A DNA stretch of 64,000 nt from a virus (Duplodnaviria; Caudoviricetes): IMG/VR virus record IMGVR_UViG_3300046819_000361, one strand, 5' to 3'. Made by a program: the position numbers and the translations under genes. The notes beneath the pieces were generated by a model. That model searched no databases and was not told the origin of the DNA. It saw only the letters and a list, made by a program, of their open reading frames with translations. Of the stretch, positions 23,722-36,491 are shown one piece after another (the stretch's first letter is position 1; every line of letters begins with the position of its first letter).

Positions 23722-23773
23722 CAGGCTCATTTTTTCTAGTTTGCAATTAGATTTTTTATGCTGAATTGAGCCT
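23722..23773 (-). ncRNA. CAGCA-scaffold copy 7, Cys anticodon stem-loop cargo
   Basis: AGGCTCA-ATT-CAGCA..TCTAA-TTGCAAA-CTAGA..TGAGCCTG. Confidence 0.8.
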
Positions 23774-23778
23774 AAAAT

Positions 23779-23852
23779 TGGAGCGGTCTAGGGGAATCCA
23801 ACCCCTTTCTATGCCTTGGAAGGGCAGGGCACGAGCAATATACCAAGACCGC
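23779..23852 (-). tRNA. tRNA-Gly(TCC)
   Basis: TGCC-CTTCCAA-GGCA, U73-CCA; atypical D and T loops (TTGGATT). Confidence 0.8.
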
Positions 23853-23853
23853 G

Positions 23854-24339
23854 TTATTCATTCCACCTATATTTGTACAAATATGTATCTAATTTACCAT
23901 TGGGCTTTAAAAAATTCTTATCCCCAACTCGTATAGGTGTATATTCTATTTTTTGTTGAACTATATCAAAAACAGTAATGCTACCAATTAATTTAACATG
24001 TACGGGATTGATAATCCAAACTTCTTTTGTCACTTTTGCATCAAACACTAATTTTTCTTTTACAATGACATCATTACTAATGATGTCATCACGGTTAATA
24101 TTAGTTGGTTCATATGCATATAAAATCAATTTTCCATTAACAAATTCATTTTCTGATAATTGTAAACCAATAATACATCCTTCTATACTCGGAGCAAATG
24201 AGACTCGTTTAATTGTATTATCTTCAAATGCATTTTTTCGTATTTTTAATTTTTCAGGTATTTTTGGAGTTAATATATCTAATGAATCTTGTTTACTCAA
24301 ATGATACAGCTTGGTCTTATGCAATTCTGATATTTTCAT
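23854..24339 (-). CDS. hypothetical phage protein
   Basis: 161-aa ORF, LYHLS..RVSFAPSIEGC..DAKVTKEVW. Confidence 0.6.
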   Translation of the reverse strand: MKISELHKTKLYHLSKQDSLDILTPKIPEKLKIRKNAFEDNTIKRVSFAPSIEGCIIGLQLSENEFVNGKLILYAYEPTNINRDDIISNDVIVKEKLVFDAKVTKEVWIINPVHVKLIGSITVFDIVQQKIEYTPIRVGDKNFLKPNGKLDTYLYKYRWNE

Positions 24340-24350
24340 ATTTTATTTAA

Positions 24351-24405
24351 CAGGATACGTTTTATTTCACCAATTGAAAGTTTTTGTATTTGCTGAATGT
24401 ATCCT
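24351..24405 (-). ncRNA. CAGCA-scaffold copy 8 (single hairpin)
   Basis: AGGATAC-ATT-CAGCA..TTTCA-ATTGG-TGAAA..GTATCCTG. Confidence 0.8.
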
Positions 24406-24599
24406 AAAAAGTTTAGATTAGTTGTTCCTAACCCTTAAATTATTTTATCCCCTATCACCAGGAATATCATCACTATCTAAATCTGGGTCAGAAAAATCTA
24501 CACCCCAAATATATTTAATTTCTTCAATTTCATCTTCGAATTCATCATCTTCGAATTGATTATTGTGATTAGTAATCATACTAGCGTTCATTGTTGTAT

Positions 24600-24675
24600 T
24601 GGAGCCTCCAATAGGAATCGAACCTACAACCCCCTGATTACAAATCAGGTGCTCTACCAATTGAGCTATAGAGGC
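24600..24675 (-). tRNA. tRNA-Thr(TGT)
   Basis: CCTGA-TTTGTAA-TCAGG, CCA. Confidence 0.95.
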
Positions 24676-25893
24676 GTTATTCTTTACAATTTAACCTTTG
24701 TACCACACACAGTGCAGGTGCCATTGAGTTTTTTGAAATCAAGATTAAAAACTCTCATACCGGTACCGTATGTTTTATCTTGAAACTCATGTTTACAATT
24801 ACATTTCTTTACTTCTACAGCCATTATGCACCTCTTTTAATAAGAATGTTAATACGATTTTGATATTTACGTTTATCACGTGGTCTAACAGTTTTTTCAA
24901 CTAGTTCTTGTAATTTAGCTAAACTAAAATTACCAATTCTAACCTTACCATTTTTAGTTTGATTAGGGTTAGCTTTTCTGTTTCCTTTACTAATAGTTGC
25001 CATTTGATGTCCTTATTATACTATTACTTATTATTGTTGTCAAGTGTTTTTATATTTTCTTCGATAAATTTAATTGCTTCATCGACTGGTAATTCACCCA
25101 CTTCTACATGAAATACATTTCTGTCTTGTGCATGAGCACCATGTGAATTAAATGCTACTGTTGGCAATTCTTTATCAAATTTAGATACCAATCGTTCATC
25201 ATTGTATGTATCTAACACTTCTTCAACAACTTCCTTTTTCTTACTGAAAATTGCATCCCAGTTATCTGCAAACTTCTGCCTGTTAACTGGTCTAGCTGCA
25301 CTTCCTTTGCCGCCATGCCATCCTGCCATTGTATCTCCGTTACATTTTTGTTGCCAATATAGTTTTGGCTAATTCTTTTGTTGCGATTAAATCATTCTGA
25401 CTAAATGAACTTTTAATCTTTTCTGAAAATTCAATTCTTTCTTCTATTGTCATTAATCTATAAATTATTTTTATCAATTCATAATCAAATTCAGTTGGTT
25501 CTTCTAAATTTTCAAACATAAAAGTATTCTTGTCAGTGTGTTTAAATTTCAGGTTGAGTTTTTATGAATCGATCAATGTTTTGAATCATCAATTGTTTCA
25601 ACCTAACTTTATCATATCCTGGTTCTTCTAAACATTCTGGAAGTGTTAACCGGAATAAAGTTTCTTTTTCTTCATCATATATGGATAATGCCCATATTTG
25701 TGTTCCACAGAATCCACTAGCAGCTAATAATATCATTTGCCACCCATCACCTTTAATAAAACTATGGGTACGTTGCAATTGTGGTCCAACATGTGTTTTC
25801 AGAAAATCAAAAGTATTAGATAATCTATTTTGATAATCTTCACCATAAGAATCATTTCCGTGTATTACTATCATTTGCGCCTCTGTGTTAAAT

Positions 25894-25968
25894 TGGTGGA
25901 GCTATCCGGGCTCAAACCGGAGACTATGCCTTGCAAGGGCATTGTGTTCTCAACTATACCATAGCCCC
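25894..25968 (-). tRNA. tRNA-Ala(TGC)
   Basis: G3:U70, ATGCC-CTTGCAA-GGCAT, CCA. Confidence 0.9.
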
Positions 25969-26081
25969 AATTTAAATATTATATCAGTTATTCTACATTG
26001 TGTCAAGAAAACTGATAAATAATGATGTAGTTCGCGGAATGGGGATTCCCAACTACTTTAATACTGAAAAGGAGTATCAAC

Positions 26082-34710: not shown

Positions 34711-34727
34711 ACCTAATTAGTCTAATT

Positions 34728-35213
34728 TTATAATAAACCACACTACGGAAGGATTCGAACCTTCGGTTGCCGTCGCACTCAACACACCAGTGTACCTCAA
34801 TACGAATCGAACGTATCTTACCACCATTTATAGTGTAGTTTATTATATAATCATATAGTAAAGTGCATTAAACGAGGGAACACGAATGCTACACATCCTC
34901 CTGTCTCCGGCCCTCAAGCTTAACATCCTCCTGGCCAGTGATGTTAAGGTGACTGATTAATGCACTTTAATATAAAATTATATAGAAACACATGCTGAAG
35001 GACGAACGGCGTATTTCCATCGAAGAACTATATCTTTCTCATCGCCGTATAGCTTCCCGCACGATATAGTCTGAGTTGCGCTTCAGGATGTGTTTTTATA
35101 TAATCATATAATAAAGCATACTACACGGAATTGAACCGTCTTCATTCAAGCCCGGAGCTCAAACTGTGATCCACACAACGCTGATCAGACGCTAATATGC
35201 TTTATTATATGAT
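34728..35213 (-). ncRNA. four tandem long-stem-closed RNA cassettes (about 110-120 nt each)
   Basis: terminal inverted repeats at about 34728-34846, 34853-34974, 34980-35102, 35103-35213; GC-richer interiors, some with TTCGAAT/TTCAATT T-loops. Confidence 0.65.
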
Positions 35214-35214
35214 T

Positions 35215-35290
35215 TGGTAGGACCGCCGAGACTCGAACTCGAATTCCCGGATTAAAAGTCCGGTGTTCTAACCAATTGAACTACGATCCC
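35215..35290 (-). tRNA. tRNA-Lys(TTT)
   Basis: CCGGA-CTTTTAA-TCCGG, CCA. Confidence 0.94.
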
Positions 35291-35356
35291 AAATTTTCTT
35301 GCCTTCTTTTTCTGTTTTTGTCTTTCGTTTCATAATTATTTCCTATGTTGTTATAG

Positions 35357-35418
35357 CAGGATACGTTTTTACTAGTTGAATTAAAAGTTCAGTGTAAATT
35401 GTTTGCTGAATGTATCCT
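35357..35418 (-). ncRNA. CAGCA-scaffold copy 18, Lys anticodon stem-loop cargo
   Basis: AGGATAC-ATT-CAGCA..TGAA-CTTTTAA-TTCA..GTATCCTG. Confidence 0.85.
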
Positions 35419-35796
35419 AAAACTGTTTATGCTGTTAATTATACAGCATTTTTATACGTTGTCAATTATTTTATCTGGATATTGTGCATCACGGCGTTCA
35501 ATTTCAGCATATGGACTGTAGCCAGGCTGTAATTCCGTGATATTAGTAAATCCATTGGTTTCTGTAATCAAACTATCATTAGAATCGATAGAACCACGAT
35601 ATTTACTACCATAACTACCTTCTAATTTACCAGTACTCGGATTAAGATCACCCCATTTAGTGTGATTACCACCGATAACTTCAATATAGTAGGTTTTACC
35701 AGTTCGGTATGAATAAACAACATGTCTACCGGTATCTTCAGTTTTTGTAAAAAATTTCTTTCGGGTTTCTTCGTCCATAATAGTTTCCTTTGTGTT

Positions 35797-35870
35797 TGGT
35801 GCTTTAGAAAGGAATCGAACCTCTGTCTGCTCGGTGTAAACGAACGGCCCTACCATTAGACGACTAAAGC
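35797..35870 (-). tRNA. tRNA-Val(TAC)
   Basis: GTTCG-TTTACAC-CGAGC, A73-CCA. Confidence 0.9.
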
Positions 35871-36353
35871 TATAATTGTTGCTTTCTTATTCCCGGCTAT
35901 CACAGAGGTTGCCACTTGTACTTCATGGTTCTCAACTTGCAGGTTCTGGCGGAACAGAATTCTCGTATTGCCAACGTGCTTTTGGTTCAAAGCATACCAC
36001 CCGTGTGTATCACCACACTTCTTATCCTCTGGGTCAGAGTATCCGTTGATTAGACGGTTCGATCTTCAAGAACTTGTTGTTCCCATTTACTTTTTAAATA
36101 GATCTTTTGACCATGCAACCAATATTCTTCTTCTGTAAAATTAGTAATAACAGCAGGGCCATGTTCATTATGATATTTCCCATCTTGGCAATAACAAGTT
36201 CTGCGGCCATCATATCTAATAATTGCTGGTCCATTTGTGTTATGCGATCTTCCATTTTTCATAAAAACTATTGTTGTATCAGATACGCTAATAGTGAGTT
36301 CAGGATTGTCTGGGTTAATATATTCCATAATTACCAAATTGTAAAGTTAAAAT

Positions 36354-36429
36354 TGGTGCTACCGACTGGGATCGAACCAGTATAGCTGGATTTTCAGTCC
36401 AGTGCATGAACCATCACTGCCACAGTAGC
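36354..36429 (-). tRNA. tRNA-Phe(GAA)
   Basis: CTGGA-CTGAAAA-TCCAG, CCA. Confidence 0.92.
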
Positions 36430-36437
36430 AAAATTAT

Positions 36438-36491
36438 CAGGATACGCTTTTTCATTTTTCAAGAATGTTTTTTAATTGCTGCATGTATCCT
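36438..36491 (-). ncRNA. CAGCA-scaffold copy 19, Ser(TGA) anticodon stem-loop cargo
   Basis: AGGATAC-ATG-CAGCA..CATT-CTTGAAA-AATG..GTATCCTG. Confidence 0.82.

Follow-up and report, generated by a model that had tools for sequence, protein, structure and literature searches.

Cleavage of tRNAs is a common anti-phage strategy of bacteria, and the known phage answers are spare tRNAs or repair; tRNAs encoded by phages counteract PARIS as well as other nucleases that attack tRNA (PMC12409363). Y RNAs, the partners of Ro60 proteins, are modular and combine a Ro-binding stem with an effector module (PMC4201824), and the Ro60 protein of the Thermus phage phiLo, with its RNAs Yrl1 and Yrl2, binds the polynucleotide phosphorylase (PNPase) of the host (PMC12135203). 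Here, we analyzed a 64,000-nt stretch of DNA (hereafter the window) from a giant lake-water phage (Caudoviricetes; IMG/VR record IMGVR_UViG_3300046819_000361). Its tRNA array contains a family of small RNAs that share a terminal stem with a CAGCAA motif, here called the handle, and lies beside the gene of a Ro60-like protein. The closest known system is Ro60/Rsr with YrlA and YrlB (PMC4201824; Rfam RF02553). The feature is real and conserved, and it belongs to the Ro60/Y-RNA type, the cargo being one not described before. On balance, we favor an account in which the short copies are phage Y-RNA-like RNAs that would display anticodon arms together with a Ro60-like partner. We found neither the CAGCAA handle nor the display of anticodon arms described in any paper, nor did we find an Rfam family for these RNAs.

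The window is AT-rich (~34% G+C) and is part of a very large phage, since the Ro60-like protein is found on contigs of up to 367-375 kb. Its 25 tRNA genes are minus-strand genes that span 22.5-42.3 kb (25 calls by ARAGORN, 22 by the Rfam tRNA model, none of them at the positions of the short copies). In this region an initial annotation had marked five single-hairpin elements as anticodon-loop mimics on a common scaffold and as candidate decoys for anticodon nucleases. A strict scan for any 7-mer followed by NT-NCAGCA and later by the reverse complement of the 7-mer plus G yielded 17 copies, every one of them a minus-strand copy within 22300-36491; the five elements were recovered to the exact nucleotide as five of the six short copies. 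Elsewhere in the window the scan returned only four chance-looking matches, both strands summed. Relatives, cited below by their L numbers, were sampled as 80 IMG/VR loci recruited by the Ro60-like gene, and upstream DNA of four contigs was added. The 80 loci contain 163 copies on the gene strand versus ~10 noise matches on the opposite strand, and in the added contigs a control pattern read backwards gave at most two matches per strand and none in most contigs. The coordinates of RNA copies, tRNAs and promoters given below all refer to the minus strand.

The five elements indeed share one scaffold, 5'-AGGNUNN / NU / NCAGCA ... NNANCCU-G-3', with the minus-strand reading U-AGGAURC-AU-UCAGCAA ... 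AAAAC-GYAUCCU-G. The handle consists of a 7-bp stem that pairs the 5' and 3' ends, followed by a single-stranded NU-NCAGCAA; the 3' strand is A-rich. Among 136 unique copies, pairs 1, 2 and 5 of the handle are fixed (A-U, G-C and U-A), and pairs 4, 6 and 7 occur in all four Watson-Crick types, giving 25 different stems that covary. With RNAalifold, a MAFFT alignment returned the same helix with compensatory changes. Mobile DNA was dropped as an explanation of the handle repeats in view of the covarying stems and the strand-specific copies. The short copies of 60-64 nt have an additional second helix with the core YAC/GUR, which covaries to AGC/GCU, and below the anticodon-like arm an asymmetric bulge with 1-2 nt on the 5' side and 3-4 nt on the 3' side. 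Short copies possess only one hairpin, end in CCUG and have neither acceptor nor T arm nor CCA. They were correctly regarded as non-chargeable from the outset and do not form a tRNA cloverleaf (acceptor stem, D and T arms, 3' CCA or discriminator). An armless mini-tRNA using the handle as its acceptor stem was also considered and rejected: CCA is missing, the stem is followed by any base and then U instead of U8, and cargo that brings its own acceptor is closed by this handle as well.

Positions 32-38 were extracted from all 25 tRNAs, and the comparison bore out that four of the displayed loops are those of the phage's own tRNAs. CUUUUAA, CUGAUAA, CUUGAAA and UUGCAAA are letter-identical to the loops of tRNA-Lys(UUU) (35215-35290), tRNA-Ile(GAU) (33804-33880), tRNA-Ser(UGA) (30517-30606) and tRNA-Cys(GCA) (22514-22592). 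Based on composition, the chance of a match is 0.0032 per loop, and that of at least four matches among five to six loops is ~5e-10 to 2e-9. The Lys loop is carried by a 62-nt RNA at 35357-35418 (P1 AGGAUAC/GUAUCCU, AU-UCAGCAA, P2 UUUAC/GUAAA, P3 UGAA/UUCA), with tRNA-Lys(UUU) 66 nt downstream. That each mimic adjoins its cognate tRNA gene was considered and is true of Lys alone. The Ile loop sits on P3 UCAAU/AUUGA of a 63-nt RNA (27199-27261), and the Ser-UGA loop on P3 CAUU/AAUG of a 54-nt RNA (36438-36491) that ends 8 nt before tRNA-Phe. The 52-nt RNA with the Cys loop (23722-23773) has the handle AGGCUCA/UGAGCCU and the stem UCUA/UAGA, and an A.C mismatch closes its UUGCAAA. Thus, the assignment of a 7-nt loop on one hairpin holds generally, but the Cys loop, with a 4-bp stem plus mismatch, is formally one of 9 nt. 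The fifth RNA (33406-33468; 63 nt; P2 UAC/GUA, P3 UUUGA/UCAAA) displays CAGCUAA. This loop, initially designated Ser-GCT-like, contains the GCU triplet but has A at position 33; the corresponding loop is CUGCUAA in L002 and L007 and UUUCUAA in L012, and the phage's own tRNA-Ser(GCU) has UUGCUAA. Apart from this A33 and the A.C closing pair of the Cys copy, the five hairpins have the form of anticodon stem-loop mimics.

In relatives the same loops recur on other stems. The 35357-35418 RNA has an identical copy in L081-L083, and its loop is found on different stems in L021 and L084; altogether CUUUUAA occurs on UGAA/UUCA, UUCA/UGAA and UUCAA/UUGAA. CUUGAAA is placed on CAUU/AAUG and, in L007, on CAAA/UUUG, with AUUGAAA variants in L021 and L084. 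The Ile loop is likewise found on UUAGA/UCUAA (L084), and the orthologue of its RNA shows CUGAAAA in L003 and L004 and CUCAAAA in L002. In L002-L006 the counterpart of the Cys copy has the stem UCUU/AAGA under the same loop, a compensatory change. L007, L016 and L017 combine the handle of the Cys copy with the cargo ACCAUUAUA instead. One phage (L084) displays the loop of tRNA-Pro(UGG), UUUGGGA, including G37, and the further loops in relatives are CUGAAAA (Phe), CUCAAAA, CUGCUAA, UUUCUAA and UUUUCAU. Thus, phages with Ro60-like proteins of ~73-89% identity share the Lys, Ser-UGA and Ile loops and mount them on different stems and handles. The expected enrichment of 7-nt loops with U33 and a purine at position 37 among homologues was found: a Y32-U33-NNN-R37 loop on a stem of at least 4 bp occurs in 15 of the 42 unique short copies, versus 0.85 on average and never more than 6 in 1000 trials with shuffled inserts. 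A gap-free alignment of 18 hairpins has 90% of its cells paired, versus 54% in shuffles and 25-48% in slid controls. Its covariation score is 0.94 against 0.22 in shuffles, none of 500 shuffles reaches the observed value, and double changes occur in four of the five hairpin pairs. The stems themselves are AU-rich and unlike the anticodon stems of the phage's own tRNAs; hence the short-copy hairpins are not recent copies of tRNA arms. Taken from the sequences, it is highly probable that loop identity is under selection and that the loops are selected anticodon mimics.

The gene of the Ro60-like protein (20509-21921, minus strand) encodes 470 amino acids with the Pfam domains DUF2828 and DUF7788; the vWA domain has a metal-ion-dependent adhesion site (MIDAS) formed by D273, S275 and S277, residues that are invariant among the homologues. 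The protein belongs to PHROG 850, "RNA-binding protein". An AF2 model built from 66 diverse homologues reached a pLDDT (predicted local distance difference test) of 92, and its 13 best fold matches in the PDB are all Ro60 or TROVE-domain proteins over the full length (Xenopus, human, Deinococcus Rsr and Thermus phage phiLo). The link to Ro60 rests on this fold comparison, since a PDB sequence search with the 470-residue protein gave no match to a solved Ro60. A protein-atlas look-up returned phage DUF2828 clusters only and no eukaryotic lead. By tblastn it is found in 711 cultured phage records, including Felixounavirus of E. coli K-12 and mycobacteriophages of M. smegmatis, whose homologues are annotated as "Ro-like RNA binding protein".

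The occurrence of the handle is linked to this gene. Strict copies are located upstream of it on the same strand in 70 of the 80 loci and downstream in none. In the 5' leader of the gene itself lies a minimal, cargo-less copy with one stem mismatch (21939-21978), closely flanked by a TTGACA-16-TATAAT promoter on its 5' side and the Shine-Dalgarno sequence on its 3' side. When the motif was relaxed slightly, the leader handle was detected in 56 of 56 distinct upstream regions, versus two matches in control stretches, and its 3' strand ends 11-28 nt before the ATG (11-18 nt in all but one) and thus abuts the Shine-Dalgarno sequence. This leader handle is likely an autoregulatory site through which the protein would regulate its own translation. 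In most of the relatives (L001-L080), the leader handle bears a hairpin whose 9-nt loop belongs to the type AAGCAUAUC, ACGCAUAUC or ACCAUAAUC. Cultured phages show the same association. In Mycobacterium phage LeBron, three CAGCAA-handle RNAs follow the Ro-like gene (L085, 3961-4209, plus strand), of 55 nt, 121 nt (YrlA-like) and 47 nt, and by our reading the 55-nt copy has the 7-nt loop AUGGUAA. The Felixounavirus Escherichia phage Alf5, which grows on E. coli K-12, has four handle RNAs in a tRNA array beside the Ro60-like gene (L086, 5255-6088, plus strand), with the handle AGACCNN/NNGGUCU. We therefore consider it very probable that the handle RNAs are the partner RNAs of the Ro60-like protein, and most likely the handle docks on the ring of this protein. 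The initial annotation did not draw on this context, in which its scaffold is the handle shared by RNAs of Y-RNA-like type and linked to a Ro60-like protein. Consequently, the working form of the short RNAs is probably a ribonucleoprotein and not the free RNA. Immediately downstream of the Ro60-like gene are genes for the peptidyl-tRNA hydrolase PTH2 (20008-20454, minus strand) and a YqeY/GatB-like protein (19384-19866, minus strand).

Three of the short RNAs are preceded by promoters of their own. Perfect sigma-70 consensus promoters (TTGACA-16-TATAAT) end 19 nt before the Lys-loop RNA (35438-35465) and 19 nt before the CAGCUAA RNA (33488-33515), and a promoter-like site (TTGCAA-17-TATAAT, 10/12; 36504-36532) ends 12 nt before the Ser-UGA-loop RNA. 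For the other handle copies, the distance to a tRNA end is 5-10 nt. Between the Lys-loop RNA and tRNA-Lys(UUU) there is a mini open reading frame of 21 codons (MKRKTKTEKEGKKIWDRSSIG; 35268-35333, minus strand) with an AGGA Shine-Dalgarno sequence and six Lys among its first 13 codons. It overlaps the 5' end of the tRNA, and one perfect promoter serves all three; it may be a Lys-sensing leader for tRNA-Lys.

In the account we favor, short and long copies would use the shared handle to dock on the Ro60-like ring, and the remaining RNA would be exchangeable cargo. The cargo of long copies would be a YrlA-type top half of a tRNA (T arm, closed acceptor and D arm), and that of short copies an irregular rod tipped by a 4-5-bp stem with a copy of a 7-nt anticodon loop, namely Lys-UUU, Ile-GAU, Ser-UGA, Cys-GCA or the GCU variant. 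Strong promoters of their own would drive three short RNAs, and the others would be released by cleavage from the transcripts of tRNA operons. The resulting ribonucleoprotein would present a bare, non-chargeable anticodon arm to proteins that recognize anticodon loops. A reader of anticodon loops is implied, because exact loop mimicry appears to be kept by selection. The leading candidate for this target is a host anticodon nuclease or another tRNA-directed defense effector, which would be occupied or misdirected while the real tRNAs of the phage serve translation. That the short RNAs specifically are nuclease decoys, as initially proposed, we regard as a tentative possibility. A sponge for aminoacyl-tRNA synthetases was considered too. 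SerRS does not read the anticodon, and since two Ser-type loops are among the best conserved, synthetases are an unlikely target.

The gene content of the window makes tRNA-targeting immunity a credible pressure on the phage. A T4 Rnl1-like RNA ligase (12885-13778, minus strand; PF09511, E 2.5e-13; phrog_562, E 5e-52; PDB 2c5u/5tt6, E 4e-7) comprises only the nucleotidyltransferase domain, aligning to residues 10-249 of the 375 of T4 Rnl1 and lacking the C-terminal domain of the T4 enzyme. The same strand also encodes an adjoining phosphoesterase (13769-14317; phrog_547, E 3e-49), a P-loop kinase of polynucleotide-kinase type (AAA_33; 15804-16268; PF13671, E 1e-15; phrog_505 "polynucleotide kinase", E 7e-11) and a metallophosphoesterase (10576-11457), which is part of this tRNA-repair-type gene set (10576-16268). 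Since the phage encodes 25 tRNAs together with an Rnl1-like ligase, a Pnk-like kinase and phosphoesterases, damage to anticodon arms is presumably a pressure on this lineage. The repair set fits a decoy role and the adaptor role discussed below equally.

Several observations weigh against the favored account. Some nucleases require more than the loop: AriB of PARIS cuts the anticodon stem at positions 40/41 and is sensitive to the stem sequence (PMC12409363), and the stems of the decoys do not resemble those of tRNAs. To titrate a nuclease, which is catalytic, a decoy would have to bind tightly or be present in large excess. The handle lacks the canonical Rsr-binding motif GNCGAAN0-1G. Loops that are not anticodon-like (ATTGG, ACCATTATA and ACGCATATC; as RNA AUUGG, ACCAUUAUA and ACGCAUAUC) occur in several short copies that are equally conserved. 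Among them is the sixth short RNA of the window (24351-24405; 55 nt; stem UUUCA/UGAAA, 5-nt loop AUUGG), which is kept in L002-L007 and has AUUGGA in L045. At one orthologous position the triplet is GAU, GAA or CAA among close relatives, which could be relaxed constraint rather than an arms race. When single sequences are folded by minimum free energy, the handle is recovered, whereas the AU-rich hairpins of 4-5 bp, which are weak, are not, and RNAalifold on the MAFFT alignment did not recover the anticodon-like hairpin either, only the handle. Support for these hairpins hence comes from covariation, because minimum-free-energy folding misses them. The covariation set was preselected as hairpin-forming, so that the percentage of paired cells is partly circular; the compensating changes under identical loops are not.

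Other functions of the displayed arms were weighed against the same data. The cargo could serve as an adaptor that recruits a friendly anticodon-loop-binding enzyme, such as a tRNA repair enzyme encoded by the phage or a tRNA-modifying enzyme of the host, to the Ro60-like ring and thereby forms a particle for tRNA repair or quality control. We judge this rather unlikely, although there are precedents: Y RNAs tether effectors, as they do PNPase to Rsr (PMC4201824, PMC12135203), and in bacteria the RtcB repair genes that tRNA damage induces are neighbors of rsr and Y RNA genes (PMC7790460). Moreover, tRNA targeting might be supplied in trans to a ligase that aligns only to the nucleotidyltransferase part of T4 Rnl1, and PTH2 and YqeY are encoded directly downstream of the Ro60-like gene. 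The ligase gene, however, is ~6.7 kb away from that gene, and a PF09511 scan, which can miss weak matches, found the ligase in only one of four related contigs, which are partial; a complete relative also carries it. RtcB was not found in the four related contigs. Less probable still are generic YrlB-type short Y RNAs, in which the hairpin would merely stabilize the RNA or gate the Ro60-like ring and the triplet would go unread, the loops having been inherited from tRNA-derived ancestors and kept since U-turn loops are stable. The long copies do show a family built of tRNA parts, triplets vary among close relatives, and non-anticodon loops occur as well. But the agreement with real tRNA loops extends over all 7 nt, positions 32, 37 and 38 included, and is far more frequent than chance allows; by our own estimate this holds even under a Y-U-NNN-R-N null, with five of ten distinct loops matching where a few percent are expected. 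In addition, the Pro loop retains G37, and the same loops persist on diverged stems and handles.

It is highly improbable that the handle is mere punctuation, a cleavage or folding signal for RNase P, E or III that separates tRNAs and renders the cargo irrelevant. Many copies do lie within 5-10 nt of tRNA ends, the 7-bp stem resembles an acceptor stem, and YrlA of M. smegmatis is cut by RNase P (PMC4201824). Yet three short copies follow consensus promoters of their own, the handle occurs away from tRNAs in every leader of the Ro60-like gene, and the cargo is conserved with compensating changes. It also speaks against punctuation that the CAGCAA motif is not known to act in tRNA processing. 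Just as remote is a role as codon-directed regulators, whose triplets would base-pair, at the ribosome or in mRNA leaders, with codons or other loops and so tune the translation of AT-rich phage genes. The triplets read A/U-rich codons, and the Lys-loop RNA, the Lys-rich mini open reading frame and tRNA-Lys form one unit behind one promoter; however, only the Lys copy adjoins its cognate tRNA, no complementary targets were identified, and three bases offer little specificity.

The longer copies contain T-loop hairpins in nine cases and include YrlA-type tRNA modules of T arm, closed acceptor and D arm. That they are circularly permuted tRNA genes maturing to real tRNAs was considered and dropped, as the acceptor is closed by a loop of only ~4-11 nt and CCA and discriminator are missing. 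The 118-nt RNA at 33248-33365 combines a T arm, loop-closed acceptor and D arm with an anticodon-like arm (UCUU/AAGA, loop AUUGUAA). Permuted modules like that of YrlA are present in the 122-nt RNA at 28001-28122 (T arm, closed 7-bp acceptor, D arm) and in the 110-nt RNA at 23292-23401. T arms are likewise found in the RNAs at 32621-32711 (91 nt; T-arm hairpin with loop UUCGAAU), 27730-27863 (134 nt), 27642-27720 (79 nt; with a short closed acceptor and a D-arm-like hairpin), 27271-27358 (88 nt; with a hairpin ACGA/UCGU and loop UUAAUAU) and 23412-23510 (99 nt). The 92-nt RNA at 22416-22507 has the handle GGAAUAG and a hairpin GCGG/CCGC with loop CUAAUAC, which is kept with compensating stems in L027, L032 and L067. 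The cargo of the 86-nt RNA at 22607-22692 is unclassified, and the 107-nt RNA at 22300-22406 is the nearest full-size copy upstream of the Ro60-like gene.

Further genes are embedded in or close to the array. Inside the RNA array GroES (22700-22987) and a parvulin-type peptidyl-prolyl isomerase (22995-23267) are encoded on the minus strand. Within the tRNA array a carbamoyltransferase of NodU/TobZ type (28323-29816, minus strand) is followed by an ARD/cupin protein and an FkbM methyltransferase; the NodU/TobZ type consists of Kae1-like and YrdC-like domains, and these three genes could encode phage enzymes for tRNA or sugar modification. Homing-endonuclease-like genes, GIY-YIG/NUMOD3 and HNH/NUMOD3, are located near or in the tRNA and RNA array (16943-17653, plus strand, and 31564-32244, minus strand). 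The minus strand also harbors a tRNA(CUA) of amber-suppressor type (42262-42336), a Polynucleobacter-1 RNA motif (40657-40812), a tellurite-resistance-type cluster (42759-46272; TerD, TerC/DUF475, vWA-TerF-like and TelA) and a permuted two-piece transfer-messenger RNA (tmRNA; 46338-46720). An auxiliary gene for AmoC/PmoC, subunit C of ammonia or methane monooxygenase, is found at 7111-7872 (minus strand; E 1.5e-123). Together with the tmRNA, which is of beta-proteobacterial type, it hints at a nitrifier or methanotroph as host.

If the favored account is true, anticodon-arm RNAs on a Ro60-type particle would add baiting as a third answer of phages to tRNA cleavage, an RNA-decoy arm of counter-defense beside tRNA replacement and Rnl1/Pnk repair. 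It would also assign a concrete job to the bacterial and phage Ro60/Y-RNA system, which still lacks one. With handles beside the gene in Alf5 and LeBron, one phage of each group offers a tractable cultured system.

Host cleavage of anticodon arms is the setting that the phage would share with T4, where Pnkp and Rnl1 repair tRNA-Lys cut by PrrC, and with T5, whose tRNA variants resist PARIS AriB (PMC12409363). Both answers are represented here by a full tRNA set and an Rnl1-type repair set, and the displayed Lys-UUU and Thr-UGU-like loops correspond to the best targets of AriB (PMC12409363). In contrast to bait, the known countermeasures of T4 and T5 repair or replace tRNAs, and we found no published description of a non-chargeable anticodon arm used as bait. 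A decoy principle has been put forward for another defense system: Camara-Wilpert et al. (2023) reportedly described Racr RNA anti-CRISPRs, phage RNAs in which mimicry of CRISPR repeats serves to sequester Cas proteins. As in Racr, a small phage RNA copies only the protein-recognized part of a host RNA, with the decoy role being a candidate one here; the target system differs, and Racr has neither partner protein nor handle. T4 encodes the stable RNAs species 1 and 2 (rnaC and rnaD), which are non-tRNA RNAs in its tRNA cluster. They, too, are small stable RNAs whose genes are interspersed with phage tRNA genes and which are processed from transcripts shared with the tRNAs, but they are not known to possess a CAGCAA handle or a Ro60-like partner.

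A likeness exists to the Class I RNAs of Dictyostelium (RF01414; PMC7919456), which are ~50-65 nt long and have a short 5'-3' stem with compensatory changes. A single-stranded motif ending in CAGCAA follows the 5' strand in both groups (CCUUACAGCAA in Class I versus NU-NCAGCAA in the phage, with UUACAGCAA in some phage copies), and both have an A-rich 3' part, a variable middle and a 3' end of the form ...C-UG. Measured against the definition of Class I (the 11-nt motif CCUUACAGCAA, ~42-65 nt, 3' CUG(U)), the phage motif is one base shorter between stem and CAGCAA. The Rfam model Dicty_Class_I_RNA matched 24351-24405, 36438-36491 and 35357-35417 on the minus strand with 29.9, 29.2 and 23.1 bits, respectively, below the gathering score of 41.5; the short copies are its best and only near-threshold matches. 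Class I RNAs differ in being eukaryotic and nuclear-encoded with a DUSE (Dictyostelium upstream sequence element) promoter ~60 nt upstream instead of sigma-70-type promoters, in their known binder, the RRM protein Rnp1A, and in a stem of 6 instead of 7 bp. They were reported to be unique to Dictyostelia (PMC7919456). The likeness of the handle offers a first lead to partner and function of that class. Doubtful as a whole, however, is the widest proposal, that the Ro60-like ring is a display stand on which anticodon arms (Lys, Ser, Ile, Cys, Pro and others) bait or sense nucleases and that, in addition, the handle is homologous to Class I RNAs, which would then partner a Ro60-like (DUF2828) protein themselves.

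The comparison with the Ro60/Y RNA systems is the closest one. Instead of the GNCGAAN0-1G or CGAA motif (PMC4201824, PMC12135203), the phage handle contains NU-NCAGCAA with an invariant U-N-CAGCA(A), and the phage protein belongs to DUF2828/DUF7788 rather than to TROVE in Pfam. The tRNA-like domain of YrlA is absent from the five short RNAs and present in 28001-28122 and 23292-23401, which the Rfam YrlA model matched with 50.5 bits (E 5e-9) and 40.8 bits (E 3e-6), respectively, at a gathering score of 69; the model aligns to the tRNA-like module only. Short copies resemble the YrlB type in architecture (handle, irregular rod and small loop), for which no sequence model exists. Exact anticodon loops on short members are, to our knowledge, not described for any Y RNA, and the phage family is expanded to at least 17 copies across the tRNA array. 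Nevertheless, the general design is the same. Judged by its predicted fold, a ring-shaped Ro60-fold protein with a vWA/MIDAS domain adjoins several small RNAs encoded on the same strand, the RNA ends are paired into a stem next to a bulge with a short conserved motif, and the cargo is modular, with a mimic of the tRNA top half in the long members and a simple hairpin in the short ones.

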